DNA from: a virus
Virus record (IMG/VR): IMGVR_UViG_3300022744_000001
Span: 194,022-258,021 of that record
DNA length: 64,000 nucleotides
Direction: 5' to 3' (one strand)
Part shown: piece after piece, positions 10,746 through 63,988 of the stretch
Position numbering within the stretch: the first letter of the stretch is position 1
Layout of the letters: each line of letters opens with the position of its first letter
Made by a program: the position numbers and the translations under genes
The notes under the pieces: model-generated
Databases searched by the model: none
What the model saw: the letters and a program-made list of their open reading frames with translations, nothing else
Told to the model about the DNA's origin: nothing

Positions 10746-11219
10746 CTACACCAGGGGGTCTTCGTCCATGAGGTCGAAGCGGCTCTTCACTGGCTCAGCA
10801 GGGGGCGCCGCTGGAGTGGCAGCGGGTTGAGGATCAGGTTGCGGGGTCGGTTGGGTGGTCGTCACGCGCGCTTGAGCCCGACCATTGGGGCTTTCGGTCA
10901 CTGTGATTTCAGTGGTGTACGTGCTGAACCCGCCCGCACTGAACTCGCCACGCTCGATACGAGCGCGCTCCTGGTTGAGGCGTTGGATTTCCTCCCGGAC
11001 CGTTCGGAGAACACGGTTGGTAGAGGTCTCAAGATCCGGAGCCGCTTCAAGCGCCCTTTGAAGCTCTCTCTCAGCGGGGCTACGAACCGGCTCACTTTTC
11101 TTCAACGCTTTCGGCCGACGCTTCTCTTGCCACGGTTTGATCCACCCATGCCAAAGAGACATGGCGAACATCCCGAAAATCGAGCCGAGGGCTAGCGCTA
11201 AGCAGACTTGGGCGAGCAT
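10746..11219 (-). CDS. membrane-anchored proline-rich protein ending in SRFDLMDEDPLV
   Basis: N-terminal TM helix, Pro/Ala-rich linker, then the shared SRFDLM-acidic tail. Confidence 0.5.
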   Translation of the reverse strand: MLAQVCLALALGSIFGMFAMSLWHGWIKPWQEKRRPKALKKSEPVRSPAERELQRALEAAPDLETSTNRVLRTVREEIQRLNQERARIERGEFSAGGFSTYTTEITVTESPNGRAQARVTTTQPTPQPDPQPAATPAAPPAEPVKSRFDLMDEDPLV

Positions 11220-11222
11220 GCC

Positions 11223-11744
11223 CTATTTGACACCGTAGGTATCCTCCCAGAGCTTCCCGTCTCCCACGGATACGGTTTCTGCGTAGGCCGCTCGTTCGTG
11301 CTCGGCTCCGTAGTACATGGTCCTCTGACCGAACCCCCAACGGAAGCCCGCGGTCAGGTAGGAGATGAGCTGCCAGGACCCAGCGCTCCACCAGATGAAG
11401 AGGCCCGCAGCCCAGTGCCCGTGAAACACAAACACGTGGAGGGCTGCGATCAGGAAACCGATGAAGCAGTTGTCCTCGTACTGCCGGACATGCACGCCCT
11501 CATGCTGTTCGATCTGGCGAACGCCCCGGTGCTCCTTGTTGAAGATCACCGCGCTGCCCATGGTGGTTGAGTAGCGCCACCACGAACAGACCCAGTCCGA
11601 CCAAGTCGCGACAAGAACCCCGAAGGACTTCCATTCAGGGTTCTTGGCGAGCCGGAGCAGCACCATCAGATAGACGCCCGGGTAGCTCATGGTGAGCGCC
11701 CACGGAAGGCAGAACGGATAGAGGAGCCATCGGCTGGTTTTCAT
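11223..11744 (-). CDS. membrane protein with HExxH motif (putative membrane metallopeptidase-like)
   Basis: Two hydrophobic helices. EQHEGVHVRQYE contains HExxH, and a downstream Glu is present. Confidence 0.4.
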   Translation of the reverse strand: MKTSRWLLYPFCLPWALTMSYPGVYLMVLLRLAKNPEWKSFGVLVATWSDWVCSWWRYSTTMGSAVIFNKEHRGVRQIEQHEGVHVRQYEDNCFIGFLIAALHVFVFHGHWAAGLFIWWSAGSWQLISYLTAGFRWGFGQRTMYYGAEHERAAYAETVSVGDGKLWEDTYGVK

Positions 11745-11767
11745 ACCTCAGCCGATGCACAAGAGCC

Positions 11768-12019
11768 CTAGCTGAGGAGAGCCAGGGATTCCTGCACCGA
11801 GGCCAAGAGCTTGGCCTCCGAATCCAGGCACAGAGGCGGGACCACCCGCAACACGACGTGGCCTTCCGGCACCACCGGGTAGAGGTTCATGGTGGGCGTC
11901 AGGGACCAGTCGCGGATGGCCGATACCACGGCTTTCTCCCCGTCGAATACGACTTGGCGCCAGCCATCCATCGGGATTTCTTTGGAGTTTCGCTTGCTTT
12001 CAATAGTTGTCTGATTCAC
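11768..12019 (-). CDS. hypothetical protein
   Basis: 83 aa ORF. Confidence 0.35.
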   Translation of the reverse strand: MNQTTIESKRNSKEIPMDGWRQVVFDGEKAVVSAIRDWSLTPTMNLYPVVPEGHVVLRVVPPLCLDSEAKLLASVQESLALLS

Positions 12020-12114
12020 GTTGTTCCCCCATTCAGCTTTTTGCGCGGTTAGGTGTTACATAAGGCAATCACCCTCGCGTCAGCAGCTCTTACACCAGCA
12101 AGGGGAAAGTCAGG

Positions 12115-13546: not shown

Positions 13547-13552
13547 GAAGCC

Positions 13553-13921: not shown

Positions 13922-13924
13922 GCC

Positions 13925-14448: not shown

Positions 14449-14582
14449 ATTCGCTTTTTCGTTGACATTGGATGGACGCGGCAACCGCCCCCAACCGATG
14501 ACGAATTTTCCCCGCGAGACACTTCCTCCGGTGTTTCACAGCAAACGGGCGCGCAAGTTGGGTTGAACACGACCGCAGCTTG

Positions 14583-14611
14583 TTGGCGCTCCGAAAAAGT
14601 AACTGTATATT
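14583..14611 (+). promoter_or_regulatory. sigma70-like promoter (TTGGCG-N17-TATATT)
   Basis: The -35/-10 pair sits about 45 bp upstream of the ATG at 14659, within a 200 bp non-coding stretch. Confidence 0.3.
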
Positions 14612-14658
14612 GCGGGGCCTTCCAACCCCGCGATTCAAGATGGCACAAGGGGACATCA

Positions 14659-15771
14659 ATGACTCTCGTCCAGCTCGGTAATGGCCCTCGCATTGACCGC
14701 TACAAGCGAAATCTCTCGGAAGTCCGGGCGCAAAAAGCTGAGCTTCAAAGCCGGTATGAACAGGCAATGGCTCTCCTCAACGAGGAAGAGCGGAGCCTCA
14801 TCGACCTGATCCAAAAGTCGCACCCCGTGGCGTTCGATGCAGACGTGTCGAATTCCAACCATGTGGTTGAGCCTGAACCGGTGGAACCCGAGCCGGAGCC
14901 CGAGGCCCCCAAGGGTCGCCTGCGCGTGGATGAAGTGACGGTCAAAGAGTCGATCGTCGTCCCCAAGGCCAAAGAGAGCGTTGCCCCGAAAGCCCTCGAG
15001 ACGAAGCCTTCGGAGCCCCCGAAGAAGGTGAAGGCTTCTGAGCCTCCGCCCGTGAAAAAGTCGGCCAAAGACAAAGCCAAAGACAAGGCCAAAGCACGTG
15101 AGGAGGAGCGCCGGAAAGGCAAAGAAGAACGTGACCTTAAGCTCCGGACGCCAAATCGCTTGCCAAACCTTGGGCAAGCGGCGGCACCGGCGCCGAAAAT
15201 CATTGAAACTGACGACGCTGAGGATGACGAGGAAGAGTCCGCCGAGGCCAAACCCACGAAGGGCAAGGTCCAGCTCAAGCGTCGCGCCAATGGTCCGTTG
15301 CCTCCAGGGGTGACGCTGGGACGTAACGGCCGACCCAAGCTGCTCGAGTCCCTCGTGTTCTTGCTCAAGCCCGGCCCCCTTCACCTGAATGACATCATGA
15401 AGGGGATGAAGGAGTGGCAGCTCGAGCCGAAGAGCAAGAACCCCCGCTCGTACGTTGGGTTTGAGCTGTCCAAGAACCCCAAGATGTTCCGGCCGGTGGG
15501 CAAGAAGCGTGGGGTTTGGCAGCTTGTCCCAGAGTTTCTTGCGTCGGTTGAGCTGACTGGCCTGACCTCGTTGCCCGAATCGGATCCCGAACCGGCTTCC
15601 ACCGTCGCGGAGACCGAGGAGGAAAACGAAGAGACCATGGCTTCGGATGTCAGTGCTTTGGATATCGAGAACATCCGAGCGATGCGCGCCGACGAAGCCT
15701 CGGTCAAGGTGAGTGACGAAGAAGCCCGTCGCGTGGTTGAAGAGATGACCGACACCTCCATTCAGGTGTAG
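14659..15771 (+). CDS. lysine/glutamate-rich low-complexity protein
   Basis: RBS AAGGGGA. Contains KDKAKDKAKA repeats and a P/E-rich region. Confidence 0.5.
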   Translation: MTLVQLGNGPRIDRYKRNLSEVRAQKAELQSRYEQAMALLNEEERSLIDLIQKSHPVAFDADVSNSNHVVEPEPVEPEPEPEAPKGRLRVDEVTVKESIVVPKAKESVAPKALETKPSEPPKKVKASEPPPVKKSAKDKAKDKAKAREEERRKGKEERDLKLRTPNRLPNLGQAAAPAPKIIETDDAEDDEEESAEAKPTKGKVQLKRRANGPLPPGVTLGRNGRPKLLESLVFLLKPGPLHLNDIMKGMKEWQLEPKSKNPRSYVGFELSKNPKMFRPVGKKRGVWQLVPEFLASVELTGLTSLPESDPEPASTVAETEEENEETMASDVSALDIENIRAMRADEASVKVSDEEARRVVEEMTDTSIQV

Positions 15772-15780: not shown

Positions 15781-16284
15781 ATGGAACTCGGAGATCTAGT
15801 CCTCTACAAGCAGAGGCGGTGGCTGGTCGAGCGGCGGGACAAAATGACCCGCACGATGTTTCTCCGCTCCCGGAACAGGGACGTCGAAGAAATCCCGGAA
15901 AACCTCGACCTCTACGAGCCTGACACGGTCAAGGTGATCGCCAACCCAGGCAAGCAGTGGAAGGTGCTTGCGGCCCCGCTCAAGCCTGGGGCGGGCCCTT
16001 TTGTCCGGTTCGTTGTGCCTGCCATTCTGGGCAAACCCGAAGTCGAGTTGGAACCCTGGAAGGACTGGATCTCCAGCGACCCCTCTCGTGAGGGTGGGAG
16101 CATTTTCGTCCGCCCTGGGACCAAACTGAAGACCCACACAATCGTAATGCTCACGCACCAGAACGGGCACACGGTTCGGGTCAAGGTGCCGGGGAACTTC
16201 TCCACCACAGCCGCCAAGCAGAAAGCGGCCACGCCCCCGCCACCTCCCCCGAACCGTTTCGACCGCATGATGGACGACGACTAG
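15781..16284 (+). CDS. hypothetical protein ending PPPPPPNRFDRMMDDD
   Basis: 167 aa. Its C-terminal tail is a variant of the SRFDLM-acidic motif. Confidence 0.5.
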   Translation: MELGDLVLYKQRRWLVERRDKMTRTMFLRSRNRDVEEIPENLDLYEPDTVKVIANPGKQWKVLAAPLKPGAGPFVRFVVPAILGKPEVELEPWKDWISSDPSREGGSIFVRPGTKLKTHTIVMLTHQNGHTVRVKVPGNFSTTAAKQKAATPPPPPPNRFDRMMDDD

Positions 16285-17962: not shown

Positions 17963-18166
17963 ATGACGGTCGAAGAAACGATTCGCATGCTGATGAAGAT
18001 GCCTCCCAAGGCTGACTTCGCATGCCTTCTAGGGTGTGGTCGCAAATTCGTGGCCGCAGACCTGGACCCCGAGAAGATCCAGATCGTGCATCGAGAGCGT
18101 GGGTCAAATCAGGTGGTCGCCGACGCCACCGAGACCAGCGAGCCCGTCGTCGCCATCGTCCTCTGA
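17963..18166 (+). CDS. hypothetical small protein
   Basis: ATG follows TAGGGGATTAGGTGGGGGA. 67 aa. Confidence 0.3.
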   Translation: MTVEETIRMLMKMPPKADFACLLGCGRKFVAADLDPEKIQIVHRERGSNQVVADATETSEPVVAIVL

Positions 18167-18520
18167 ATCAAAATCCCAACCCCGCTCGTCCTCCCCGAGA
18201 TACCCGGGATGCCTGCCGTCATGCACCTCCCTGTGGCATCGACAGCAGAGCAGCACGCACTTGTCGAGTTCAGCCCGAATCGCCTCGAACGAGGTCATTC
18301 GGTCCGAGATGTTAAACTCCTTGCCGAGTGACTCCGTGTGGTGAAAGTCGAGCGCCGCTGCACATTCGCTGTAGCCGCAGATTCGACAAGCCCCGCCTTT
18401 GTACGCGATAGCCTGGTCCCGAAGCTCCTTTCGTCGCTTCGCTGCCTTCTGTCTGCGGTCCCAACGCTTCTCCCAATCGGTCACCCAAAGGCAATTCGAT
18501 AAAAAGATTTTTCCTCTCAT
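18104..18520 (-). CDS. HNH endonuclease
   Basis: CRICGY...LDFHHTESL...CCRCHREVH matches the HNH zinc-finger nuclease motif. Confidence 0.75.
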   Translation of the reverse strand: MRGKIFLSNCLWVTDWEKRWDRRQKAAKRRKELRDQAIAYKGGACRICGYSECAAALDFHHTESLGKEFNISDRMTSFEAIRAELDKCVLLCCRCHREVHDGRHPGYLGEDERGWDFDSEDDGDDGLAGLGGVGDHLI

Positions 18521-21420: not shown

Positions 21421-21522
21421 GGCTGCCCCCCCCAAGGAGCAGCACTCGGCCGACTTCACTGCCTACATTTTTCAACTACCTTGCAAACGCAAGGACGTTA
21501 GCATAGCAGATTCGAGGCCCTG

Positions 21523-22107
21523 ATGGAACCCCCTGTCACATACCACCCGAAGTTCGTCGCGGATCCCGACCTCGCTCTCAAGACGCTCCAGAACGAACTG
21601 GAGTGGGAGCGAAGGTCGGATGCGCCTCGGTCGGAATACTACTGCAACGACTTCCAGAAGCCCTATGTCTACGGCCGCGGTAATGGTCGAAGGACGTACA
21701 TGCCTCGCCCCTACCACCCGGTGGTGATGCAGATCCGGAGCCAGCTGGAGACGCTCTTGACCCATTGGTTCGAGGTCTGCTTCCTGAACCGCTACCTCGA
21801 CCAGAGCGACCACCTGGGCTGGCACGCGGACGACTCCCCGGAGATGGACGACCTGCGGCCCATTGCCGTCGTGTCCTTGGGCGTCGAGCGCGAGATCTGG
21901 TTCCGCCCGAAGGTGGCCCCTCTGCCTGACGGGGTCGTGTCGCTCGCGGACGTCCAGAAGCTCAAGCTCGAGCACGGAAGCCTCTGCGTCATGGCGCCGG
22001 GCATGCAGGACGCCTGGGAGCACCGAATCCCCAAAGCCTCGTTCAAGTGCGGCGAGCGCATCAGCTTGACCTTCCGCGGCTACGTTGAGCCCCCGGTGCT
22101 GCCATGA
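21523..22107 (+). CDS. alkB: AlkB-like 2OG-Fe(II) dioxygenase (alkylation repair)
   Basis: LGWHADDSPEMDDLRPIAVVSLG...ISLTFRGY aligns with the E. coli AlkB HxD...H core and the RxNLTFR motif. Confidence 0.75.
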   Translation: MEPPVTYHPKFVADPDLALKTLQNELEWERRSDAPRSEYYCNDFQKPYVYGRGNGRRTYMPRPYHPVVMQIRSQLETLLTHWFEVCFLNRYLDQSDHLGWHADDSPEMDDLRPIAVVSLGVEREIWFRPKVAPLPDGVVSLADVQKLKLEHGSLCVMAPGMQDAWEHRIPKASFKCGERISLTFRGYVEPPVLP

Positions 22108-26041: not shown

Positions 26042-26905
26042 ATGAACGTCTATGGAATCTCAGGGCTGAAGGGTCACGGGAAAGACTCTCTTGCAAAAGC
26101 CATTCAAGGCGAGAGCGGGGACTTTCGTATCACTCACTTCGCGTTCGAGTTGAAGCGCCTCGGTGGGGTCATTTTCGGCCTCACCGATGCTCAGATGCAC
26201 GATCAGCTGTTGAAGGAGTTACCTCTCCCTGAGCCCGTCCACATGGACGAGTTTCTCCCGGCGATGCGCGAGCAGACGGGGCTGGACATTCAACCCGCGG
26301 AGAAGGTTGCCAACACCCCTCGAGAGGTTTTGCAGTACCTGGGTACCGAGTACGTTCGTCGAGCCAGACAGTCTTACTGGGTCGATTGCGTGCTCAAGGA
26401 AATCATGGACGTGGGGGACTTCTTCCTCGTCCCTGACACTCGGTACCCGAACGAGGCCGACGCGCTCCGGTCCATCGGAGGCAAGGTCATCAAGGTCAAG
26501 CGCATCGACATCCCTGAGCACACGGACGGGCACTCGAGCGAGACCGAGATGGCGAAGATCGACCCGGACCTGCTCCTGGGCACGGTTACCGGCGGGTTCG
26601 GGCTCCAATCCAAAGTGGCCGCGTTGATTGCTCGGGGCCAGTTCGAGGAGGCCAAGAAGTACGACTACCGCCGAATCGAACGAGCTTTGGCGGAGTTCAG
26701 GGCCGGTGGCACAACCCGGGACGTGGCCCATACGCTCGAGCTGCACCTGGTGGACGCAGAATTCGTTCTCGATTACTACAAAATCAACTGCAAACGGTGT
26801 CTTGGGTATCGACGGTTCATTGACGGCGAGCTAGACCGAGGCCAAGTTGGCTTCGAAATCATGTCCTGTCAGGACTGCAAGGTGATTGACCCACGGCTTT
26901 CATGA
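26042..26905 (+). CDS. deoxynucleoside monophosphate kinase (T4 gp1-like) with C-terminal zinc ribbon
   Basis: ISGLKGHGKDSLAKAI matches the T4 dNMP kinase LSGVKRSGKDTTADFI. C-terminal CKRC...CQDC. Confidence 0.6.
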   Translation: MNVYGISGLKGHGKDSLAKAIQGESGDFRITHFAFELKRLGGVIFGLTDAQMHDQLLKELPLPEPVHMDEFLPAMREQTGLDIQPAEKVANTPREVLQYLGTEYVRRARQSYWVDCVLKEIMDVGDFFLVPDTRYPNEADALRSIGGKVIKVKRIDIPEHTDGHSSETEMAKIDPDLLLGTVTGGFGLQSKVAALIARGQFEEAKKYDYRRIERALAEFRAGGTTRDVAHTLELHLVDAEFVLDYYKINCKRCLGYRRFIDGELDRGQVGFEIMSCQDCKVIDPRLS

Positions 26906-27159
26906 GGCTGTCCATGAGCGATCTCTACCGAGAAATCTGCAAGTGCGGGGCCCCAACGGTGCCCACCGACTACAACGTAGCGGGCACTGAGGTACAGATC
27001 GCTCTACTCTGCCAAACCTGCCAAGAAGAGGCCGAGTGGGAACACCTAGCCCTTCGGGCGGAGTTCAACCAGCTCCTCGAGCAGGGCGTTCACCGGGCTA
27101 TGGCCAACCGCATCATGATTGTCCGTATGGAGCATCGTCGAGCAAGTCAAACCGGCTGA
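26902..27159 (+). CDS. small Cys-rich protein
   Basis: CKCG...CQTCQ. Confidence 0.4.
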   Translation: MRLSMSDLYREICKCGAPTVPTDYNVAGTEVQIALLCQTCQEEAEWEHLALRAEFNQLLEQGVHRAMANRIMIVRMEHRRASQTG

Positions 27160-27349
27160 GAAGCCGGGGTTTGTGCTCGCACTCGAGATAGCGACATACG
27201 CAGTTGTCCCGGCAATGGCAAGTCTCGGGGTCCGAGCCGTCATGTACACATGACGCAAGCCCCAACTTCCGTAGACCGTGCTCGAAATACGCCTTGGCCG
27301 CAGCCATGCGAGCAGCGCGTTGCAACTCTCTCAGACGTACAACGAGCAT
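27113..27349 (-). CDS. small Cys-rich protein ending LLSRFDLLDDAPYGQS
   Basis: CHCRDNCVCRYLECEH, followed by the shared SRFDL tail. Confidence 0.45.
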   Translation of the reverse strand: MLVVRLRELQRAARMAAAKAYFEHGLRKLGLASCVHDGSDPETCHCRDNCVCRYLECEHKPRLLSRFDLLDDAPYGQS

Positions 27350-27360: not shown

Positions 27361-28128
27361 CTATCCGATGAGGTCGAACCTACTCAAGACTTTCGTATCA
27401 GAAGTTTCTTCCTTCGTGCCAAAGGCATGCTGGAGGAGCGGTTTGAAAGTGCGCTCCACGTAGTCATTCGAATCAGCACGAATCTTGGCGAAATGGCACA
27501 CGGGGCAACCTGCAAACATGGAATTGGCAGAGATGTGGTCGTGCTCCGTGTTGAAACTGATCTGCGGGCCATCCGAAGTGCGGGTAATGGCGATGAAATT
27601 GCGATTGTACATCCAGTAGTAATGCCTAGTGGCCGAACTTAGGGTCACTCCGAATCGTTGCACCAGCTCAAGGATCTTCGCGACGGAAGCGTTTGGGTTG
27701 GCCTCGAGCACGAGAATGAAAGCCATGATGACCAAAGAGCTGAGGTTGAGATTGCTCCCAAGGTTCAATGGGTTGCTATCCCCGCGGTCCTTGCACTCTT
27801 CGACGTGGCAGTAGCAAGCGGGGGAGCACCGGCACATGATGGGGTACTCGCCCTCGTGGACACAGTTCTTCTCGGCTCGGTTGTGTGCCCGTTGTCGTTC
27901 GAGGTAGCGGGTTAGATGTGTGACGGCGAGGCCCTCGAACCAGTTAGGCTTCAAGACTTCCTTCTCCAAGGCCGTCCTCGCCGCTCGGAGGTGGGACACA
28001 ACGGAGGGTGTCCCCTCGTGTTGGGTTTCCAACTCCCGAAGCGTAGCCAGGGTTCTCTGCAACAAGTCGTCGGATCTCGGCAAGTTCTCGGGCATGTTCG
28101 TCAAGCCTCTCCAGAATTTGCTGTACAC
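27361..28128 (-). CDS. Cys-rich protein ending VLSRFDLIG
   Basis: CRCSPACYCHVEECKD. Its C-terminus carries the SRFDL motif. The start overlaps DUF1003 and is uncertain. Confidence 0.45.
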   Translation of the reverse strand: MYSKFWRGLTNMPENLPRSDDLLQRTLATLRELETQHEGTPSVVSHLRAARTALEKEVLKPNWFEGLAVTHLTRYLERQRAHNRAEKNCVHEGEYPIMCRCSPACYCHVEECKDRGDSNPLNLGSNLNLSSLVIMAFILVLEANPNASVAKILELVQRFGVTLSSATRHYYWMYNRNFIAITRTSDGPQISFNTEHDHISANSMFAGCPVCHFAKIRADSNDYVERTFKPLLQHAFGTKEETSDTKVLSRFDLIG

Positions 28129-30132: not shown

Positions 30133-30173
30133 GACCATGGTCATCGTGACCATGGTTATCGGAACCATGGTCC
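30133..30173 (+). promoter_or_regulatory. three tandem 15-bp units each containing the palindrome (G)ACCATGGT(C); candidate operator array
   Basis: ACCATGGT occurs at 30134, 30149 and 30164 with exact 15-bp spacing, directly upstream of the NAD-operon regulator. Confidence 0.4.
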
Positions 30174-30943
30174 TCAACACCAGGGTAGTCATGTATCGTT
30201 ACAAATATCCGCGACCGTCGGTTGCTGTGGATCTCGTCACCTTTGGGTACGACGCGACCCAGGCAGAGATCAGTGTCCTACTCATCAAGCGCAAGCACGA
30301 TCCCTTCGAAGGGAAATGGGCCTTGCCTGGGGGGTTTGTCGAGGTTGGAACCGAGGACGATTTCTCGGGGTCAAAGCCTTCGAACTACGGGGAGTCGCTC
30401 GAGGACGCTGCGCGTCGTGAGCTGAAGGAGGAGACTGGGGCGGAGCCCGAGTACATCGAACAGCTCGGGACGTTCGGGGACCCCAATCGTGATCCTCGCG
30501 GGCGAGTCATCTCGGTCGCCTACCTCAGCCTCGTGCGCTCCAAGGACCTCACTGTCAAAGCCAGCTCGGATGCAGCCGAGGCGGTGTGGTGGCCTTTGAA
30601 GTCTGCCCTTCGCCAGAAGTTCGCCTTCGACCACAACACCATCCTGAATCAGGCCGTAACTCGACTTCACTCAAAGGTTCGGTACGCGCCAATCGGGTTC
30701 AACCTTCTCCCGCAGAAGTTCACCTTGCACGAGCTGCAAGAACTCTACGAGGCGCTTCTCTTGCGCCAGCTCGATAAGAGCAACTTCCGAAGGAAAGTGC
30801 TCTCCGTGGGGATTCTGGCCGAGGCCGGTCAACGCGTCCACGGGAAGCAAACCGTCCAACTCTACCGATTCGACAAGCGCGCCTACGACAAGGTCAGCGC
30901 TGCTGGCTTCAATTTCGAACCCAAGTTCGTGAAGGGGAAATGA
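30137..30943 (+). CDS. Nudix hydrolase domain + C-terminal winged-helix (NrtR-like ADP-ribose-responsive regulator)
   Basis: Nudix box GGFVEVGTEDDFSGSKPSNYGESLEDAARRELKEETG. C-terminal FTLHELQELYEALL...DKSNFRRKVL resembles the NrtR wHTH. The real start is probably the ATG at 30191. Confidence 0.6.
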   Translation: MVIVTMVIGTMVLNTRVVMYRYKYPRPSVAVDLVTFGYDATQAEISVLLIKRKHDPFEGKWALPGGFVEVGTEDDFSGSKPSNYGESLEDAARRELKEETGAEPEYIEQLGTFGDPNRDPRGRVISVAYLSLVRSKDLTVKASSDAAEAVWWPLKSALRQKFAFDHNTILNQAVTRLHSKVRYAPIGFNLLPQKFTLHELQELYEALLLRQLDKSNFRRKVLSVGILAEAGQRVHGKQTVQLYRFDKRAYDKVSAAGFNFEPKFVKGK

Positions 30944-40526: not shown

Positions 40527-40891
40527 AGTATTGACTTATACACCAGATTTAACGATTCCCTTTCAGTCGAGGAGGATGGTCTTGAGTATCCTCAGACGGC
40601 TTTGCCAGGCAGCTCGAACAATCTCCCCTAACGCTTATGTGAAATTCACGGCAAAAACAGGAACCAACGGCGAAGAACTTTGGAGTGGAACCATTGGGGT
40701 TGGCGACGCAATCATCACCGAACACACAGGGAGCCTTGAGGAAGTCATCGACCAGCTTTCTTACAAGCTCACGAGGCTATCGACCGCGGTCATTGACCGA
40801 CTGTCTCGGGTAACCCCCGTACCCGGAGCCTTAAAAAACAACGGCCAGGATCAGCAAGATCCTGGCCGTGAAGGGGAGCCTTGACTCGAGG

Positions 40892-42322: not shown

Positions 42323-42504
42323 GATTTTCTCTTCTTTTCGTCTCCGGAGGCGTCGAGCCTCCCGCCTTCCCGTACACCAATCACATGCTGAACTTGGGCT
42401 TTTGCCCGCATTCGCCTCAAAAAAGCCACGAAACGGCAGCGGAGCCGGTAGGTTTGCGCTGGGAAATCCCCGAGCTGAGCTAAACCGCCCTTGGCTAAGT
42501 TGAG

Positions 42505-42735
42505 CTATTTGCTGGGTTTCGGTTCTGAATTTGGGAAAATGGAAGCAATGAGGCAGCCCAAGTGATAGGGCACTTCCCGGTCTTCCTCTTTGGTGGCCGC
42601 CGCGAAGGGCAGAACTACGCCCCGGTCTCCATGGCGTATCGGTTCTTGGCACGCAAAACAGGGTTTTGACGGGGTGGACACTTGCTGCCCGGTTTCACAC
42701 ACCCCTGCCTTCCACGGCGGCCCGAACCACTTCAT
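42505..42735 (-). CDS. possible small Cys/His protein in long divergent intergenic region
   Basis: 76 aa ORF (CFACQ...HLGC). Weak support. Confidence 0.2.
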   Translation of the reverse strand: MKWFGPPWKAGVCETGQQVSTPSKPCFACQEPIRHGDRGVVLPFAAATKEEDREVPYHLGCLIASIFPNSEPKPSK

Positions 42736-43804: not shown

Positions 43805-46042
43805 CTACTCAGCGGCTTCGGCGAAGTTCCCCGGACCAACAAGACCAACCAAGTGCTGACGCGCGACCCGGTACGTGTTCTTCGCGGTCTGGATCTCGGC
43901 CCGAATGGCCGCGCTCTCGAGGTTGCGATCAATGGTGTTGATGAGGTCGTCGGGGGTGATTTCAATGCCGTTCTCCCGCAACATGCGCTCGAGCTTGGCC
44001 TGACGCTCGAGCGAGAACTTGGAGCGGTCAAACTTCGTCCCCTCCTCCTGCAAGAACTTCACGACCTCTTGAGCCTTCTCTGGCCTGCGGTTCACGAAGT
44101 TGCGCATGTTCTTGCGCCAGAGGTCGTCGGCCATCTTGCGCACGGTGTCGCCCACGGCCCCCTCGAGTTTGGTTGAAGCATCGGTCCATGCCACGTCCGA
44201 GAAATTCGGGGACAGGGGCAAGTACGACAAGGAGCGGCGGAGCAGCTTCACACGGTCCACATGAGCCAGCTCGCCCACCAGAAGGACCTTGGCGAAGCGG
44301 CGGATGATGGGCATGGACATGCGCTCGGGATGGTTCGTCGCGCCCCACACGGAGATACCCGAGTAGGAGAGCACGCCGTCCATGAGAATCTGGAACTCGG
44401 TTGTGAGGTTCGTACCCCCGAACGCTTCGTGTCCCTGATTGCCGTTGAGCACCGTGTCGATCTCGTCGATGGAGATGAACGCTTGGCGCTCGGTCTCCTT
44501 GTGGAGCTGCAAGGCAGCCTCGAACAGGCGCTTGGGGTTCTTCTCGGCCTCACCCTTCCAGCAGGTGAGGAAGTCGGAGCCCTGGGCGAAGATGGTGAGC
44601 GCATTCCTCTCGCTGCTGATGGCTCGGAGAGCCTCGGTCTTGCCACACCCCATGGGGCCGACCAAGAGCACGTTGCTCTTGTCGGTCTTGCCGCTCGGGC
44701 TCGTGGCCCGGAAAAGGTCGGCGTACATGGACGAGTCCTTCGCCTGCTCGACCATCTCCCGAACTTCGTCGAAGCCCGACCCCACCAGGTCCCCGAGCGA
44801 GACCTTGGGCTTGAGGCCCGGGATGACCTCGAGCGCTCCAGGGGCCTCCCCCAGGAAGGAGTTGCCCGCCCCCACCTTGCACACGTAGAACGAGTTCTCG
44901 TCCCGGTGGATCTTGTACCACTGGGCCTTGCGTGCGAGCACGAACTTCACGATTTCCTGCCCGCTCTTCTCAGTGAGGAGTAGGCCCGAGATGGTCGAAA
45001 TCGTCTCGTTGCGGAAGTCGATCTCCATCTGCTCTTCGGGACTCTTGAGGCCAACCTTGTCCCTCTCCCGAACGTTGCGGGGGTCAAGCTCGCTGACCGA
45101 ACGGAGAGCCTCTTTGAACTCCGACTCATTCATGAGGCGGCGCGGGGGCTTGCCTCCAGTCACGCGGCGGATCTTCTCGGCCGCCGTGTGAATCTTGGCC
45201 TCGATTTTCTCCGCCCCTTCCCACATGGAGGTGAGGTTTTCGGAAAGGAAGTCGATGATTTCCCCGGGCTCCTTCACGAACCCGCCGAAGAGGCCACCAC
45301 AGAGGGCGTCGGCCAGGATCGTGGCCTTGCGCTGGGTGTAAACGCTGATCTCGTCCGGCTTCTTGCCGTCCTGGATTTCACCATGCGCGTCCGCGTTCTC
45401 GTAGATGGAGATGGCCAGGTCCGTACGAACGGGGTCACCGTGAATTTTGATGCCTTCCACGCTGTGCCGGTGTCGAAGCATCTTGTGGTACATCTCGAGG
45501 TGGAAAACCACGCCTCGAGCAATAGACACCACCAGGTTTTGCAGGACAGCGGCGTTCTCAACCCCTTCCACGAAGCGCTGCAAAGGCTCCTGGTTCATCT
45601 GCACCAGAAGCACGAACGCTTGCAGCTCCTCTCGGGTCGTCGGGGGTTTGACGTCGCCGAAGAGCATGAGGTTCATGGGTTGAATCGCATGCACCGTGTC
45701 GCGGAGCGCGTGAAATCCGTTCTGAATTGCCCGGGAGATGCTGAGGATGAGCGCCACGAAGTTGCCTGCGCCCATCGTGTGCTTGAACTGCTGAAACCAG
45801 TCCTCTTGCTGGTTCATGTCGAAGGGGTTCTTCGTTCTGAGCGAGTTCTTGGCCTCTGCGACCATCGCGCTGTAGGTGTCCCCGATCTCCTCGACGCGCT
45901 CATCGAATTCTTCGCACAACTTGTCGAGGAAAGCCCCGGTTTCACGAAGGCCGTCGTAGTCGAAGTCCAACACCAGGCCCACGAGATCCGTGAACTGGGC
46001 CGGAGTGATAGATACTTTGGAAACCATTTTGTCGATGTACAT
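43805..46042 (-). CDS. large classic AAA-family ATPase with about 480 aa unique N-terminal region
   Basis: Walker A VLLVGPMGCGKTE, Walker B FISIDEIDTV and sensor-1 GATNHPERM are present. Start uncertain: the track's extreme end (46075) would be TTG; the first in-frame ATG is at 46042, with another at 46027. Confidence 0.65.
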   Translation of the reverse strand: MYIDKMVSKVSITPAQFTDLVGLVLDFDYDGLRETGAFLDKLCEEFDERVEEIGDTYSAMVAEAKNSLRTKNPFDMNQQEDWFQQFKHTMGAGNFVALILSISRAIQNGFHALRDTVHAIQPMNLMLFGDVKPPTTREELQAFVLLVQMNQEPLQRFVEGVENAAVLQNLVVSIARGVVFHLEMYHKMLRHRHSVEGIKIHGDPVRTDLAISIYENADAHGEIQDGKKPDEISVYTQRKATILADALCGGLFGGFVKEPGEIIDFLSENLTSMWEGAEKIEAKIHTAAEKIRRVTGGKPPRRLMNESEFKEALRSVSELDPRNVRERDKVGLKSPEEQMEIDFRNETISTISGLLLTEKSGQEIVKFVLARKAQWYKIHRDENSFYVCKVGAGNSFLGEAPGALEVIPGLKPKVSLGDLVGSGFDEVREMVEQAKDSSMYADLFRATSPSGKTDKSNVLLVGPMGCGKTEALRAISSERNALTIFAQGSDFLTCWKGEAEKNPKRLFEAALQLHKETERQAFISIDEIDTVLNGNQGHEAFGGTNLTTEFQILMDGVLSYSGISVWGATNHPERMSMPIIRRFAKVLLVGELAHVDRVKLLRRSLSYLPLSPNFSDVAWTDASTKLEGAVGDTVRKMADDLWRKNMRNFVNRRPEKAQEVVKFLQEEGTKFDRSKFSLERQAKLERMLRENGIEITPDDLINTIDRNLESAAIRAEIQTAKNTYRVARQHLVGLVGPGNFAEAAE

Positions 46043-46074
46043 GGCCAACCAGTACACCGGCAGGTGTAAAGGCA

Positions 46075-47295
46075 ATGCACATGGACCAGTTTGTTCGGCG
46101 AAAATTAACCGAGCTGAAACCCCACCCTAAGAACGACGCATTCTTCCATGACCTGCGCCTATCCCCTAAATACCCGCTTGTACGGGAACAGGTTTGCAGT
46201 GGCGAGATCCAAAACCCGCTCACTGTCCTGTCGGACGGCACGGTTGTATCGGGCCACCTTCACTATCTAGCCGCTCTTGAGCTTGAGGTAGAGGAAGCTC
46301 CCATTCAGCTTTACGAGGGGAACTGGAACGAGGTGCACGAGCTGGAGTTCTTGCTCCAAGCGAACGCCCAACTCGGGTACCTGGGGTTCGAACAGATAGC
46401 GATCGCGTACTCTCTCCTTTTGGGAGGGGCGATTGAGAAGCCCAAGGACGCCAGCAAAGGCGGGCGGCCGAAGAAGGGGGCTGCCCCATCTCCGGAACGG
46501 CGACAAAGCACCAAAGAGCGGGTAGCGCGGCTCCTGGGGGTTTCTGCGAAAACCGCAGAGCACTTGCACCTGATCTACCTGACGCCCGGGGTCCCTGCGG
46601 ACATTCACGACGCTGTTGAAAACCGAATGGTCCCCATCGCCCTCGCGGCGGATGCGGTGCAGTTCAGCATCCATGAGGCCCTTCGACGCAACCCTCACAC
46701 GAAATTCGTCGTGGTGGACCCGATTGACGTGCGTACGTACATCGAGACGCCCCCAAACAAACGACGCACGAAAATGGTGGACCTGCTCAAGGGCAAGCGT
46801 CCCCGCCCCCTCCCTCCCGTCATGCTCGAGGGGAAAGAAGTTGCTGACTACCACAAGCGGGTCTTTTCTTCGGTCCCGCCCCCCTTCCATCCAAAGCAGA
46901 GCGTGCAGAGCATGATTCGAGACGGGGTCCACTGGGATGATCTCGAGGTGCCAGACAACGACATCCCGCTTCACGAGGCCATTGGGCGCATTCGGGCTCG
47001 ACTCAGCAAGGCTTTCGAGGCCCCCGTCCTGGTACACGAGGACAAGGTCGAGGAGGCCCTAAACTCGCTCCTTTTGGAAGTTGCGCGGCTCATGAAGTCG
47101 CACCACGGCAAGGAAGTCTCGGTCCGCATCGGGAGCGCTCCAGTAGCCCCCAAACCGCGCCCCAAAGCCACCGTGAAACCCAAGGCAGAGTCAAAGCCCC
47201 CTTCGAAGCCCCCGGCCCCCACCGTCTTCGCTACCGAGGTCGAGTTCATCGTCTCCTTGCTCGGGCTGGAGACCGTCCAGGCACTAGGGCGCTAG
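46075..47295 (+). CDS. ParB N-terminal-domain-like protein
   Basis: LKPHPKNDAFFHDL...LTVLSDGTVVSGHLHYLAA resembles the ParB/Srx fold with its GxxR-type motif. Confidence 0.5.
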   Translation: MHMDQFVRRKLTELKPHPKNDAFFHDLRLSPKYPLVREQVCSGEIQNPLTVLSDGTVVSGHLHYLAALELEVEEAPIQLYEGNWNEVHELEFLLQANAQLGYLGFEQIAIAYSLLLGGAIEKPKDASKGGRPKKGAAPSPERRQSTKERVARLLGVSAKTAEHLHLIYLTPGVPADIHDAVENRMVPIALAADAVQFSIHEALRRNPHTKFVVVDPIDVRTYIETPPNKRRTKMVDLLKGKRPRPLPPVMLEGKEVADYHKRVFSSVPPPFHPKQSVQSMIRDGVHWDDLEVPDNDIPLHEAIGRIRARLSKAFEAPVLVHEDKVEEALNSLLLEVARLMKSHHGKEVSVRIGSAPVAPKPRPKATVKPKAESKPPSKPPAPTVFATEVEFIVSLLGLETVQALGR

Positions 47296-58452: not shown

Positions 58453-59733
58453 TCACCCAAAGCTGGCTTGTTTCGTCTTCCGCGGGGTGAGGACCGCAGC
58501 ACCTTTCCCCATCACTACGTCCTCGGTGATGAGCACAGAGCCCACCGTTTCATCCCCAGGGATATCGAAGGACACGTCTCGAATCGTATCCTCGAGAATA
58601 GAGCGCAAGGCTCGAGCACCCGTGGGCCGCTGTTTGGCCAACCGAGCGATTGCCCTCAGTGCATCATCAGTGAACTGCAAATCCACCGTGTCGATCGAGA
58701 AGAGGGCCTTCGCCTGCTTCAAAATGCTGTGCTTGGGCTCGACCAAGACCCGAACGATATCCTCTTCGCTAAGCTCGGTCGTCGTGGTGAGAACGGGCAA
58801 ACGACCCGCAAGTTCAGGAATCAACCCGAACTCAATGATGTCGTCCTCACACGCGGATAGGTACGAGTGGGACAGGTCAAACCGCTCCTTGGTCGAAGCC
58901 CCAAACCCAATCCCCGCCCCCTTGTTGAGGCGTCGTTCAATGAGGGGCTCAATACCGGCAAAGCTCCCAGCACAGATGAACAGGATGTTGGCCGTATCGA
59001 CCATGTCCGTGACCGACGCCTGGGAGGCACTGCGACCCTGTCTCGGCACCGGCACCTTGGTGCCCTCGAACAACTTGAGCAGCGCTTGCTGTACCCCTTC
59101 ACCGGAGACGTCCCGGAACCCAGCCGATGTCTTCCCGCTCTTCCTGGCAATCTTGTCGATCTCGTCGATGTAGATGATGCCCCACTCGGCCTTCTGAACG
59201 TCGCCGTTGGCCTCCTGGACAAGCCCTTGAAGGAGGGTTTCGACGTCGTCCCCGACGTAACCAGCTTGCGTGAGACGGGTCGCGTCCCCGATGAACAACG
59301 GCACCTTGAGCATGCGAGCAATGCTGCGCGCCAGATGGGTTTTGCCAGTGCCCGTCGGCCCGAGAAGCAGGATATTCGACTTCTCGATCTCAACGTCCTC
59401 ATAGCGGCCGTTCATCTTCGTCATCCACTTGCCGTTGGCTCGACGGCGTTTGTAGTGGTTGTGGATGGCGATGGCGAGATCACGCTTGGCTTTGTCTTGG
59501 CCCACCACGTAATCGTCCAGGTAGGCTTTGATCTGTCGGGGCGTCCGAAGGGTCTCCTCCTCGGTTTTACCCTCGATGGTGCGCTTGTTCGACGCGAACA
59601 CCTCCATGGAGGTTTCGACGCAGCGCTTGCAGATGGCCACTGGATCGTTGGAATCTTCCTCGATTTTCGAGGTGATCAGGGACGTGACTTCGTTTCGAGG
59701 GCGGCCACAAAACCAGCACTTAGTGGGGTCCAT
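58453..59733 (-). CDS. clpX: ClpX ATP-dependent protease ATPase subunit
   Basis: N-terminal C4 zinc-binding domain CWFCG...CKRC. Walker [19 protein letters not shown]. ClpX-like over its whole length. Confidence 0.85.
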
Positions 59734-61122: not shown

Positions 61123-61130
61123 GGTGCACC

Positions 61131-61493: not shown

Positions 61494-62023
61494 GGCCGCA
61501 CGTACCTCCGGTGAAGGAGGGTAGGGTCCTCCGCGTTGACCTCTTCGGAAACGAGCTTGAACCCGGGCATGCCGTCGAGGAACGGCTTGAAAACGGTTCT
61601 GGACTCCGCAAGCTCACTCAACGTGGTGGGCCCGAAATCTTCGTAGCTCTTGATGGCCGCCTCGTTGGCGTCAAGAATCACTGTGAGGTCAAACTCTTGG
61701 ATGTGAGGGAGTGCAAGCTCATAGACGTCAGAGCCCCCCGCGATCCACACCGGGGCACCAAACGTCTCAGCCATCTTCAACGCTGCCTCGATGGAGTCAC
61801 ACGTGTTGACCCCTTCTTGTGGGGTTCGACTGATCACGATGGTCTCCCGGCCAGGAAGCTTGCGCCGCCCAATGGACCACCATGTTTTGCGACCCATGAT
61901 CAGGGTGCCGCCCATGGTCTGAGCCTTGAACCTTTTGAGGTCCTGGCTTTTCTTCCAGGGGATACCGCCCTTCGCACCAATGATCCCATCGGGCGAAACC
62001 GCCACTATCGCTCGCACTTCCAT
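61490..62023 (-). CDS. folA: dihydrofolate reductase
   Basis: IVAVSPDGIIGAKGGIPWKKSQDLKRFK...LIMGRKTWWSIGRRKLPGRETIVISR aligns with the E. coli FolA N-terminal half. Confidence 0.85.
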   Translation of the reverse strand: MEVRAIVAVSPDGIIGAKGGIPWKKSQDLKRFKAQTMGGTLIMGRKTWWSIGRRKLPGRETIVISRTPQEGVNTCDSIEAALKMAETFGAPVWIAGGSDVYELALPHIQEFDLTVILDANEAAIKSYEDFGPTTLSELAESRTVFKPFLDGMPGFKLVSEEVNAEDPTLLHRRYVRP

Positions 62024-62084
62024 GTCAACTCCATCTGCCCCGTAAAGGCGGCAACGCCTGTAGTTGACACCGGAGCCCAGGCAG

Positions 62085-63041
62085 TTACACAGCGACTTTG
62101 AAGTCGATCTTCGGGTGCGGTTCGTACCCCTCGAGCACGAAGAGGCTCATGATCTCTTCCGTGGTGACCGACGGGTCCAGGAGCGCTTCCACGTCGGTCA
62201 AGCTCTTGATCCGGTCAGAGATGGTCAGCTTGGGCAGCGACTTGGGCTCTCGAGAAATCTGCTCCCGAAGTCCCGGGATGTGGTCGTACTCGGCCTTGTC
62301 CCCATCGGGCTTGGCCGTGTAGATGTGGGCGTCGATGAGGGTGTGGCCGAAGATGCCAGGCTCGATGCCCGAGAAGCGGCTGAACAGGTGGAGCAGGAGC
62401 GCGTAGCTGGCCAGGTTGTAGGGCACCCCCAAGGCCACGTCGCACGAGCGCTGGGTCAGGTGCAGGCAGAGCCGTTGGCCATAGACGTCGGGAACCACCG
62501 TCGAGTGATACCGCTCCTTGACCTCGTTCTGCACGTTCAGGACAAACATGGCGTGGCAAGGGGGCAACTTGGCGACCTGAGCGTCACCGGGGGCCCAGGC
62601 AGAAACGACCATGCGACGCGAAAGCGGATTGCGCTGGAGTTCCCCTACGACCCAGCCAATCTGGTCGTTGTAGGGGCCGTCCAGGTTCACCTGGATGCCA
62701 CCCGACCGGTAGTTGATGACGCCCTCACGGTGCACCGGGAACTTGCGCCATGCCGGGCCGTAGCAGTTGGCCACGCGACCATCCTCGAGATACCAGGGCT
62801 TCCAAAACCCGCAGTTGTGGCGCTCAAGGAAGTCCGCCTTGTCCGAGCCGGAGAGAAACCAGAGAAGCTCGATGACGATGTTCTTCCAGCTCACCGTCTT
62901 CGTAGTGAGCAGCGGGAAACCCTCACGCAAATCGTGCTCGTAGTAGTAACCGAACGTCGAGATGGTATCGACCCCCGTTCGATTCTCTTTGCGGGTACCG
63001 TTCTGAAGTACGTGTTTCACCAAATCTGTGTACTGTTGCAT
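62085..63041 (-). CDS. thyA: thymidylate synthase (ThyA)
   Basis: RTGVDTISTFG, GFPLLTTK, ELLWFLSG and PCHAMFVLNV (catalytic Cys) are all present. Confidence 0.85.
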   Translation of the reverse strand: MQQYTDLVKHVLQNGTRKENRTGVDTISTFGYYYEHDLREGFPLLTTKTVSWKNIVIELLWFLSGSDKADFLERHNCGFWKPWYLEDGRVANCYGPAWRKFPVHREGVINYRSGGIQVNLDGPYNDQIGWVVGELQRNPLSRRMVVSAWAPGDAQVAKLPPCHAMFVLNVQNEVKERYHSTVVPDVYGQRLCLHLTQRSCDVALGVPYNLASYALLLHLFSRFSGIEPGIFGHTLIDAHIYTAKPDGDKAEYDHIPGLREQISREPKSLPKLTISDRIKSLTDVEALLDPSVTTEEIMSLFVLEGYEPHPKIDFKVAV

Positions 63042-63042
63042 C

Positions 63043-63651
63043 TCAGAATCCTTCTTCCATGAGGTCGAAACGGCTTTTGATAGGACCCACGGGTTCGGCC
63101 GAGGGCCATGAGAGTTGAACCAAAGTGCCTGGGAGAACGCTGGAGGACGTCTTGTTTTTCACAACAAGGACAGTCTCTTCATCAAGGGCCTTGAGCGTGA
63201 AGTAACTCGAGTACGCCACGATTTTTGGTAACGCGTTTCGTCGTTGGAACCCGAGAACCACGGTTTTTCGCTCGGCACGGCACCGGTCAATGAGGGCCTG
63301 GGAATTTCGAGCAAAGCTCAAAAGACCATAGTCGTTGCGTGTGAAGGACACGGGGTCAATGACAATGACAGGGGCTCGCATTTTGAGAGCCATGAGAAAG
63401 CCCTCAAGCGCATCCTCTACTTCGATCGTCGGCACATTCGTGGGCCGGACCCCTTTGTCACAATCCACGAACACAGCGGCGTTCGAGTCAGCGATGGAAA
63501 CCAAGAGTTTCCGCCGCGCCTCGAGCGGCTCCTCACTGTAGACGCAAGAAACCACCCCAGTGGGAAGCCCCTCGAGTTGGGCGTCAACACACGGCATCCC
63601 CGTCGAGATTTGCATGCTACTTTGACACCGGTCAGAATAAATCGTCGTCAA
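63043..63651 (-). CDS. RecA/KaiC-like fold protein lacking a canonical P-loop, ending SRFDLMEEGF
   Basis: GMPCVDAQLEGLPTGVVSCVYSEEPLE resembles the RecA/RadA/KaiC N-terminal region, but the Walker A GxxGxGKT motif is absent. The C-terminus carries the shared tail. Confidence 0.4.
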   Translation of the reverse strand: MTTIYSDRCQSSMQISTGMPCVDAQLEGLPTGVVSCVYSEEPLEARRKLLVSIADSNAAVFVDCDKGVRPTNVPTIEVEDALEGFLMALKMRAPVIVIDPVSFTRNDYGLLSFARNSQALIDRCRAERKTVVLGFQRRNALPKIVAYSSYFTLKALDEETVLVVKNKTSSSVLPGTLVQLSWPSAEPVGPIKSRFDLMEEGF

Positions 63652-63988
63652 ACATCAGGTCGAATCGACTTCGTGGCGCTTTTTTCTCACGAGAAAACGG
63701 CCGAGCGGAATACCCACTTTCGTTCATGACCATCTCATAGTCCTGGCCATCAACCCGAAAGACCCGAGCGAAGTCGTAGTCTTCATCCTCGTCCTCGGAA
63801 GGTTCGTTGAACTTGAACTGGTACTCCGTGATGGGCGGGCCTCGCTCCGGGGCTTTGAACGGCCCCTCCCCACCGACCACAATCGCTGCGTTCTGCACTA
63901 GCAGGATACCAAGGTCGTCGAGTTTGAAAGTAGGCTCTGGGGCGTCGATGATCACTATGGGAGAAGCTCTCCCATGCAACATGCGCAA
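63632..63988 (-). CDS. hypothetical protein ending SRFDLMFDDDLF
   Basis: 118 aa. Carries the shared C-terminal tail. Confidence 0.4.
   Translation of the reverse strand: MRMLHGRASPIVIIDAPEPTFKLDDLGILLVQNAAIVVGGEGPFKAPERGPPITEYQFKFNEPSEDEDEDYDFARVFRVDGQDYEMVMNESGYSARPFSREKKAPRSRFDLMFDDDLF

Follow-up and report, generated by a model that had tools for sequence, protein, structure and literature searches.

Six genes with one C-terminal tail

The DNA analysed here, hereafter the window, is a 64,000-nucleotide stretch of the IMG/VR virus record IMGVR_UViG_3300022744_000001 (positions 194,022 to 258,021), and our subject is a short peptide, [S/N]RFD[L/R][L/M/I] followed by acidic residues, with which six of its open reading frames (ORFs) end. 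These six carriers, A to F, lie as follows, with lengths in amino acids (aa) and each tail written up to its stop codon.

Carrier A, 10746..11219, minus strand: 157 aa; tail KSRFDLMDEDPLV; motif codons 10767-10784.
Carrier B, 15781..16284, plus strand: 167 aa; tail NRFDRMMDDD; motif codons 16252-16269.
Carrier C, 27113..27349, minus strand: 78 aa; Cys-rich module and tail LLSRFDLLDDAPYGQS; motif codons 27140-27157.
Carrier D, 27361..28128, minus strand: 202-255 aa by start codon; tail VLSRFDLIG; motif codons 27367-27384.
Carrier E, 63043..63651, minus strand: 190-202 aa; tail PIKSRFDLMEEGF (KSRFDLMEEGF); motif codons 63058-63075.
Carrier F, 63632..64000, minus strand, cut by the window end: acidic region; tail PRSRFDLMFDDDLF, RSRFDLMFDDDLF; motif codons 63653-63670.

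Is the shared ending more than coincidence? As translated, each carrier ends in [SN]RFD[LR][LMI] with RFD 6-13 residues before the stop, and the residues closing the six tails are DEDPLV, DDD, GQS, IG, EEGF and DDLF; written as 15-mers, the tails take the forms PVKSRFDLMDEDPLV, PPNRFDRMMDDD and TRFDRILEDDED, beside which stands the type found in the family of carrier B, TVYDRLLDDD. A simple gene model based on GC content at third codon positions (GC3) selected all six carriers among 100 genes totalling 19,655 residues, and in this proteome the motif occurs six times within the last 16 residues of a protein and not once internally. By chance, 0.00036 C-terminal copies are expected analytically, and 0.0005 is the mean of 2000 within-protein shuffles, none of which yielded more than 1 copy. 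Likewise, a six-frame scan of the window for RFD gave 17 matches, exactly six of which complete the motif, all near the ends of long ORFs. The pattern was defined post hoc from the same data, which inflates the P-value; this worry is removed because the tail is independently replicated in orthologues on other contigs (see below).

At the DNA level, the motif codons vary among the copies (agccgcttcgacctcatg, aaccgtttcgaccgcatg, agccggtttgacttgctc, agtaggttcgacctcatc, agtcgattcgacctgatg), none of the direct-repeat families of the window spans the motif, and a search of the window for a repeated regulatory DNA motif found none. Because the codons vary and no DNA repeat covers the motif, its conservation lies in the peptide: the tail is selected as a peptide, not as DNA. 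The sequence-only reading that first pointed to the tail had proposed as much, namely six ORFs with a near-identical ending that is conserved as a peptide and is no DNA repeat, and had suggested a comparison with shuffled proteomes; the translations, the scan and the shuffles bear it out. It had also called the six proteins unrelated and their linkers usually Pro/Lys-rich, and on both points it needs trimming. The Cys-rich modules of C and D are paralogous (blastp: 28 residues, 39% identity, E 5e-7), which leaves about five independent families, and only A, B, E and F have a Pro-rich linker ahead of the motif, C and D having none.

What precedes the tail differs from carrier to carrier. Carrier A begins with a transmembrane helix (residues 5-23, Kyte-Doolittle hydrophobicity 2.0), followed first by basic residues and a charged region of helical character, then by a linker rich in Pro and Gln and the tail; because the basic KRRPKALKK follows the helix, the positive-inside rule would place the C-terminus in the cytoplasm. 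In carrier B, two Tudor/SH3-like beta-barrels are followed by a basic helix, which a poly-Pro stretch connects to the tail. Carrier D joins its Cys-rich module to an unknown domain (202 aa, 27361-27969, in the version of the public gene caller); carrier E is of unknown fold and adjoins the thymidylate synthase and DHFR genes (190 aa in the same caller's version); and the complete gene of carrier F, of 160-190 aa, lies at L002 8838/8928-9410. None of the six carriers had a match in Pfam or PHROGs, E being without one in both and F without one in Pfam. The similarity between E and F is weak and not significant (blastp), the homologue search with E returned only E itself, and among 5.8 billion proteins D had no homologue but itself.

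The six genes are not equally secure. It had been allowed from the start that several of the ORFs might be non-coding; four of the six are called by the public gene caller, and A and C are not. Carrier A fills a gap between two same-strand genes and is validated by called orthologues of the same architecture. Carrier C is the weakest of the six, its one support being its paralogy to D, and the end of its tail (the last 15 codons, including SRFDLL) is antisense to the last 15 codons of a convergent gene, 26902-27159, over 47 nt (27113-27159). That convergent gene encodes a small CxxC protein.

The tail in a clade of huge phages

The kinship of the window is most readily followed through one gene, the hallmark of its clade.

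vWA protein, 3605-5986, plus strand: 793 aa; complete MIDAS motif (DxSxS, T and D invariant).

More than 750 homologues match this protein at 45-65% identity. Many of them lie on contigs of 200-570 kb, and on this ground we assign the window to a large clade of uncultured huge phages. It is also ~35% identical to proteins of Ackermannviridae, there labelled vWA or tail protein. The window had no match among GenBank phages; its proteins were matched exactly on a 448,224-bp contig (ENA ERZ27252002 k141_47206; 447,761 bp in its JGI copy) and on Logan SRR7614061 contigs. Around the vWA homologues we surveyed 80 loci from IMG/VR and 80 from JGI/ENA; all fetched loci, ~3 Mb with the window, are cited by L numbers where needed. 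A search for related loci with the ClpX protein found nothing.

The tail is conserved among orthologues in these relatives. In two syntenic loci (L016 and L017, with vWA proteins 64% and 60% identical to that of the window) the gene at the position of A ends in KVKSRFDLMDEDE and VLTRFDLIGEDL, and the B orthologue in QDRFSRMMEDD and ETRFSKMLDDDDF, respectively. In a still closer relative the A orthologue ends in KKTRFDMIDDD, and A orthologues in four other contigs, where the tail TRSRFDRV also occurs, keep the transmembrane helix and the tail while body and linker diverge. Orthologues or analogues with the architecture of A (L016 15341-15787, L017 from 16776, L134 5559-5954 and, as an analogue, L027 from 21341) consist of an N-terminal hydrophobic helix (Kyte-Doolittle 2.0-3.1), basic residues, a divergent charged or Pro-rich region and the tail, which by the positive-inside rule would face the cytoplasm.

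The tail is also found on other proteins. L016 has an additional carrier, a 67-aa CxxC protein ending in PPNRFELMETWSP; an RlaP nucleotidyltransferase ends in DRFSHILGDDK, and a 407-aa protein (L142/L146) carries S[VI]YDRL[IV]DDSDD.. as its tail; further tails in the surveyed loci are SRFSLLDD, SRFERLAA, KSRFDLVFN, SRWDLLTADTDII and TRFERINEAED. Low-complexity proteins of 81-94 aa are hardly more than two tails in tandem (TRFDRILDTDE...TRFDRILRDDED; L038 ~21450-21698 and L042 ~11520-11804, both plus strand) and could be bivalent adaptors or competitors for a receptor. One copy is internal: TRFDRILDDEDE occurs in a protein-kinase-like ORF (L102 3398-4396, plus strand, Pfam Pkinase E 2.6e-7; the same sequence in L098), where the insertion or loop that holds it separates the glycine-rich loop region from the VLVKVAR strand. 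Taken over the six-frame ORFs of at least 60 aa in related loci, the last 25 residues hold the motif at ~7 times the density of the interior. The tag sits on conserved genes and on orphans alike.

Beyond the clade, database scans did not find the motif. Degenerate-DNA scans of IMG/VR gave plausible C-terminal matches only in contigs of this clade, the others being chance-like: 8 chance-like matches came from the pattern S-R-F-D-L-M-[DE][DE], 5 chance matches from T-x-Y-D-R-L-L-x-D-[DE], which is too narrow, and a hand-made B pattern found 5 contigs of the clade. Within the clade, tail sub-types track the genome. In the window, L016, L017 and L038, the RF type is found on B as well as on non-B proteins; tails of the Y type occur on B and a 65-aa protein in L123, and on the 407-aa protein in L142/L146.

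The family of carrier B

Carrier B has 153 representative homologues at E<=1e-3, none of them in cultured phages. An alignment of 145 sequences with 25% mean identity has the C-terminal consensus P-x-T-x-Y-D-R-L-L-x-D-D or, with the main variants, T-x-[Y/F]-D-[R/H]-L-L-x-D-D. The aromatic position, which lies 8-15 residues from the C-terminus, is Tyr in 61, Phe in 31 and Trp in 1 of 93 B-family tails; it is preceded by A, V, R, I or S and never by Q, and the next four positions are D/S/T/E, R or H, L/I and L/M. The tail holds 1.96 bits of information per column vs 1.84 for the folded body, and the linker ahead of it is variable in length and poorly conserved. Set beside this family, the RF-type tail of the window is thus a single dialect of something broader, a motif of the form [S/T]-x-aromatic-[D/S/E]-x-aliphatic-aliphatic with acidic residues.

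With the family alignment, AlphaFold models B as two small beta-barrels (pLDDT 96.4, pTM 0.85) followed by two helices, one basic (143-150) and one in the tail (159-164). The tail helix is predicted confidently, at pLDDT 84-94 over the last 27 residues, and the model of a homologue with a longer linker has helices at 144-158 and 167-176 (pLDDT 78-93). In structure, B comes closest to Tudor domains that bind RNA polymerase (CarD and the UvrD/PcrA C-terminal domain). Three downstream genes, which encode a CxxCxxCC protein, a 101-aa zinc-ribbon protein and a 154-aa protein, are co-conserved with B. Directly upstream of B (14563-15771, plus strand) lies the gene for a 402-aa protein that is mostly Lys/Glu/Pro-rich and of low complexity, with only the C-terminal ~100 residues looking folded; its orthologues in L016 and L017 share the C-terminus ...EEMTD.

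A proposed docking motif

What might such a tail do? We propose, with a probability of about 0.6, that it serves as a short linear docking motif, portable between proteins, through which unrelated accessory proteins are brought to one common receptor. The sequence S/T-x-x-D is a helix capping box, and an aromatic residue at position i with aliphatic residues at i+3 and i+4 yields one hydrophobic face. The core [S/T]-x-aromatic-[D/S/E]-x-[L/I/M]-[L/M] with its Asp/Glu residues would accommodate a helix N-cap or capping box and then 1.5-2 turns of amphipathic helix, in which the aromatic and the two aliphatic residues would form a single hydrophobic face. The variable linker would join this element to the C-terminus of unrelated carriers, which range from a membrane anchor and a Tudor-like protein to Cys-rich proteins, enzymes and a two-copy protein that is disordered, and the motif would insert in a hydrophobic groove with a basic rim on the common receptor, so that many proteins are brought to the same place. 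The receptor is probably phage-encoded, since the motif is restricted to the clade and drifts within it, and probably multivalent, since tandem-tail proteins exist. A docking function had already been suggested from the sequence; selection at the peptide level, the variable linkers, the different folds of the carriers and conservation in orthologues argue for it, and we infer from them that the tail binds, that its receptor is a single one and what kind of receptor this may be. The hubs named along with that suggestion gained no evidence, as set out below.

Several observations weigh against this proposal. No receptor was found among the candidates examined (ClpX, a J-domain protein, the vWA protein and the sliding clamp). 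The carrier list and gene content refer to the ~83 kb that were read of the 448-kb genome. Carriers D and E are orphans, without relatives in which their tails could be compared. At two positions the non-B tails of the window (RFD-L-[LMI]) depart from the form that most B tails share (Y-D-R-L-L), and with a matrix trained on the B tails of other genomes only B and F beat the best internal score in the window, A, E and D scoring low and C negative, because the non-B tails of the window have Leu where B tails have Arg/His; the two may therefore be related but distinct ligands. Finally, the confidently modelled tail of B may belong to the fold of B rather than being a free motif.

A bolder form of the docking proposal is that the clade has evolved a hub-and-spoke targeting code. 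Tudor-like B or another clade-specific receptor would read the tag, the anchor would fix the assembly to the inner membrane, the two-tag protein would cross-link it, and fast-evolving orphans would join by gaining the tag. We consider this rather unlikely as a whole; if true, it would be a phage-built organising centre of a kind so far described neither in bacteria nor in phages. A spatial organisation of infection is suggested by the carriers with a membrane anchor and by those with tandem tails. In practical terms, the tag is an experimental handle on mostly unannotatable phage genomes of 200-570 kb: a single peptide could fish out the hub, and orphan genes with linked functions can be recognised by the tag. 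If the hub were Tudor-like B or some other new receptor, it would make a new reader-motif pair.

Candidate receptors and other readings

Among known motif classes, the best match is to ligands of the sliding clamp. It is possible, if unlikely, that a DNA sliding clamp serves as the receptor, either one from another part of the phage genome or the beta clamp of the host, and that the tails tether accessory proteins to DNA, including an RNA-polymerase-binding Tudor-like protein analogous to T4 gp33 or MuC. The core F-D-L-M or F-D-L-L matches the hydrophobic-Asp-hydrophobic-hydrophobic order of T4 L-D-F-L and of the bacterial QL[SD]LF and Qx[DE][LM]F; Ser/Thr precedes it and acidic residues flank it, as in known clamp-binding motifs; and the architecture is T4-like, with divergent linkers, unrelated carriers and tolerance of an internal position. 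A two-tail protein would suit a multimeric ring (compare MuC, with two motifs), the nearest structures to B are domains that bind RNA polymerase, and E and F lie in a block of replication and nucleotide-metabolism genes next to the PolA gene. Against the clamp, tblastn with T4 gp45, gp44, gp62 and gp55 found no homologue in the window and the fetched loci (~3 Mb); with gp43 added to the queries, the same DNA, which includes ~83 of the 448 kb of this genome, gave generic AAA similarity only, and no clamp Pfam family occurs among the called genes of the window +/-10 kb. The polymerase is of family A, which is normally clamp-independent, and its C-terminus is without the motif. The residue equivalent to the bacterial Gln is A, V, R, I or S and never Gln, Arg/His stands in the commonest B tail at the position for which clamp binding demands Leu, and a membrane anchor would be an odd client for a clamp.

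It is distinctly unlikely that the tandem Tudor/SH3-like body of B itself reads the motif, taking up its own tail in cis or that of the next B, with the other carriers competing for the groove. Tudor-like domains are known to read short motifs of several partners, as the PcrA/UvrD C-terminal domain does with the helicase interaction motif; B is the most widespread carrier, and it has two invariant surface-type aromatics, W60 and W96. Furthermore, a free tail would not be expected to give the confidence values that the C-terminal helix and tail of B reach in the models of both B and its longer-linker homologue. The packing of the tail on the barrels is suggested by those values alone, and they may just mean that the tail is part of the fold. 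An acidic tail docked in cis would fit autoinhibition of the SSB, gp32 or gp2.5 type equally well, which would make B a carrier and not a hub, and the covariation of tail type with columns of the B body is confounded by phylogeny.

Two further genes of the window enter at this point.

ClpX, 58453-59733, minus strand: zinc-finger N-domain, intact IGF loop.
J-domain protein, 6327-7316, plus strand: 329 aa; intact HPD; weak Pfam DnaJ match (E 1.4e-4); a long helical region follows.

We regard it as quite improbable that the tail is a degradation or remodelling tag, read by the phage ClpX or by a classic-clade AAA ATPase so as to time the removal of early accessory proteins. The window does encode a complete ClpX (zinc finger, IGF loop), which the clade conserves and whose gene is close to that of B in L122 and L123, and three PF00004 AAA ATPases lie in the window or just past it. 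The tail of SspB binds the ClpX N-domain, and a linker-borne tag such as this one would resemble it. Tags of the ssrA type sit at the very C-terminus with a non-polar, LAA-like end, and the SspB type is a basic LRVVK tail; here 2-10 variable residues follow the motif, the tails end acidic or mixed, and no sequence link to known ClpX tags was seen. With variable residues after the core, and with tandem and internal copies in existence, a degron is the poorer fit; conservation over ~150 B representatives, the two-tail protein and the copy in the kinase loop suit binding better than disposal. With its intact IGF loop the phage ClpX should dock on a ClpP; no ClpP gene was seen in the window +/-10 kb. 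An ERFDL inside ClpX is not conserved in the ClpX of relatives; this KERFDLS segment after the IGF loop, considered as a mimic in ClpP docking, was rejected on that ground.

ClpX was one of several hubs put forward by the sequence-only reading, together with the AAA ATPases, the vWA protein and a packaging receptor, and for none of them was evidence gained. Homologues of the vWA protein at 30-37% identity occur in ~35 loci without a tail within 10 kb, and its MIDAS site is weakened as a receptor by these many tail-free loci. The J-domain protein, likewise considered as a hub, is absent from the closest relatives, L016 and L017, which have tails.

It is highly improbable that the tail is a sorting signal for loading a capsid or phage compartment, in the manner of encapsulins or of the HK97 protease, or for export. 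Unrelated encapsulin cargo proteins share a short C-terminal peptide after a flexible linker, and the logic of the tail would be the same, a short conserved peptide closing different proteins behind a flexible Pro-rich linker; huge phages, moreover, package many internal proteins. Capsid loading or export fits poorly because at least five carriers are membrane-anchored at the N-terminus, with a cytoplasmic tail, and the gene context of the carriers is non-structural, that is, early and auxiliary genes of NAD salvage, nucleotide metabolism and methylation; nor does the tail resemble the encapsulin consensus or have a shell gene nearby. Lastly, that the feature is non-functional, through chance, a spreading DNA cassette or spurious ORFs, has in its favour the two genes missed by the public gene caller (A and C) and the overlap of C with another gene, and is effectively refuted by six copies against 0.0004 expected, differing codons without a DNA repeat, four carriers that are called genes and a tail kept by orthologues of A and B on independent contigs.

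Gene neighbourhood

The genes of the window are auxiliary or early in kind: they include NAMPT, NUDIX, RNA ligase, Acb1 and GmrSD_N, and further a Dam-type methylase, thymidylate synthase/DHFR, RNase HII, an R2K ATP-grasp protein, ClpX and an endolysin. No tRNA genes were found in the window. A NAD-salvage block of NUDIX/NrtR-like, NAMPT and CinA/cytidylyltransferase-like genes lies at 30137-33449 and 39505-40062 (both plus strand) and 36741-37445 (minus strand), and near it are an Acb1-type 2',5'-phosphodiesterase gene and a GmrSD_N-like gene; together these look like a cluster for counter-defence and NAD reconstitution. At 18104-18520 (minus strand) is a 138-aa HNH-type endonuclease with tblastn matches in 25 related loci, a number exceeded only by the vWA protein; it is probably a mobile homing endonuclease that is spreading in the clade.

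The classic-clade AAA ATPases (PF00004) are encoded at 43805-46075 and 40892-42652 in the window, and a third, of 525 aa, past its end at L002 3738-5315. The C-terminus of the second (minus strand) is a run of ~60 residues that are nearly all Asp/Glu (...DDEDNSDDEEDDDEDEDEDDDEDEDEDDED), which is also the largest tandem-like DNA repeat family of the window, 40877-41086. The third belongs to a pair on the plus strand (L002 3738-6462), in which the 525-aa AAA (phrog_8638) is followed by a 379-aa protein without a detectable family; both adjoin the gene for the family A DNA polymerase (PolA), which lies just past the window end. Homologues of phrog_8638 occur in mycobacteriophages, Vibrio phages and Pseudomonas phages. 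We considered the 379-aa protein as a hidden clamp and dropped it for want of a PHROG, Pfam or PDB signal; the 525-aa AAA, considered as a clamp loader, is firmly assigned to phrog_8638 (function unknown), its similarity to loaders being weak.

Comparison with known docking peptides

Literature searches on 'SRFDL' and on shared phage docking motifs returned nothing relevant, and in the literature searched we found no prior description of the motif sequence, the B family or the distribution of the tag. The earlier statement that no such motif had been described therefore stands for the sequence itself; it does not stand for the design, since the [ST]LDFL[FYL] tails of T4 resemble the tail in core, position, linker and diversity of carriers.

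The SCBM, the T4 motif that binds the sliding clamp, is a short hydrophobic and acidic peptide near the C-terminus, joined by a divergent linker to unrelated proteins of one phage, and it also works internally (PMC2988020). Examples are gp43 (ASLDFLFG), gp55 (PSLDFLYEAND), gp33 (NTLDFLL) and, at an internal site, DNA ligase (EGLDFLFD). Our tails have the same architecture, with linker, position and unrelated carriers of one phage in agreement, and they share a hydrophobic-Asp-hydrophobic-hydrophobic core after Ser/Thr and the possibility of an internal copy. That order is all that they have in common with the consensus [S/T]-L-D-F-L-[F/Y/L], because the register is S-R-F-D-L-M or x-Y-D-R-L-L here and S-L-D-F-L-F in T4. 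Unlike T4, moreover, the DNA read here yielded no gp45-type clamp, loader or gp55, its polymerase is of family A and without a tail, and there are membrane anchors among the carriers.

The bacterial beta-clamp consensus is QL[SD]LF, with the variants Qx[DE][LM]F in Mor and MuC (PMC12867686). Like the tail, it is a penta- or hexapeptide with a central Asp followed by Leu and a hydrophobic residue, often terminal and used by phage transcription factors; MuC, with two copies, recalls the tandem-tail proteins. The tails lack the Gln of position 1 and the Phe/Leu of position 5: in the window an R stands before the aromatic residue, the final residue is Met/Leu/Ile and not Phe, and most B tails have Arg/His in place of Leu. 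The motif, furthermore, was found by the scans only in this phage clade.

The tip of SSB (DDDIPF) and the tails of T7 gp2.5 and gp4 and of T4 gp32 are likewise acidic, hydrophobic-tipped and flexibly linked, and they recruit partners. They can fold back in cis, as the tail of B would on one reading of its model, and several of our tails end in Phe (...DDDLF, ...EEGF, ...DDDDF). In those systems one carrier serves many readers, whereas here there are many carriers; and the conserved element here is the RFDL/YDRLL helix, whose core lies 8-15 residues from the end, at a variable distance and with varying residues after it, and not an extreme C-terminal Pro-Phe with a free carboxylate behind an acidic run.

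Similarly, encapsulin cargo peptides and the tails of HK97-type proteases and scaffolds place a short C-terminal peptide on unrelated proteins after a Pro/Ala-rich linker. The encapsulin cargo consensus is Gly/Ser/Leu-rich, for example SLGIGSLK. The consensus of our tails is different, the window +/-10 kb holds no encapsulin or capsid Pfam family and thus no shell gene nearby, and several carriers are membrane-anchored, all of them having non-structural neighbours. The C-terminal Tudor domain of PcrA/UvrD offers a parallel of another kind, in which a Tudor-like domain, of the class structurally closest to the barrels of B, reads one short motif on several partners (RpoB, UvrB); the helicase interaction motif is the tip of a beta-hairpin in folded domains, [VIL]DxxTGE[VIL], and not a terminal helix.

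Because each consensus comparison fails, the tail is not a member of the T4, beta-clamp, SSB or encapsulin class. In all of the T4 clamp, SSB and encapsulin systems, shared terminal peptides organise many partners, and judged by this analogy the tail would be functionally closest to the clamp-binding tail of T4 and, more loosely, to the SSB tip and encapsulin cargo peptides. If its hub were a DNA clamp, the tail would extend clamp-coupled recruitment beyond the T4 and Mu systems.

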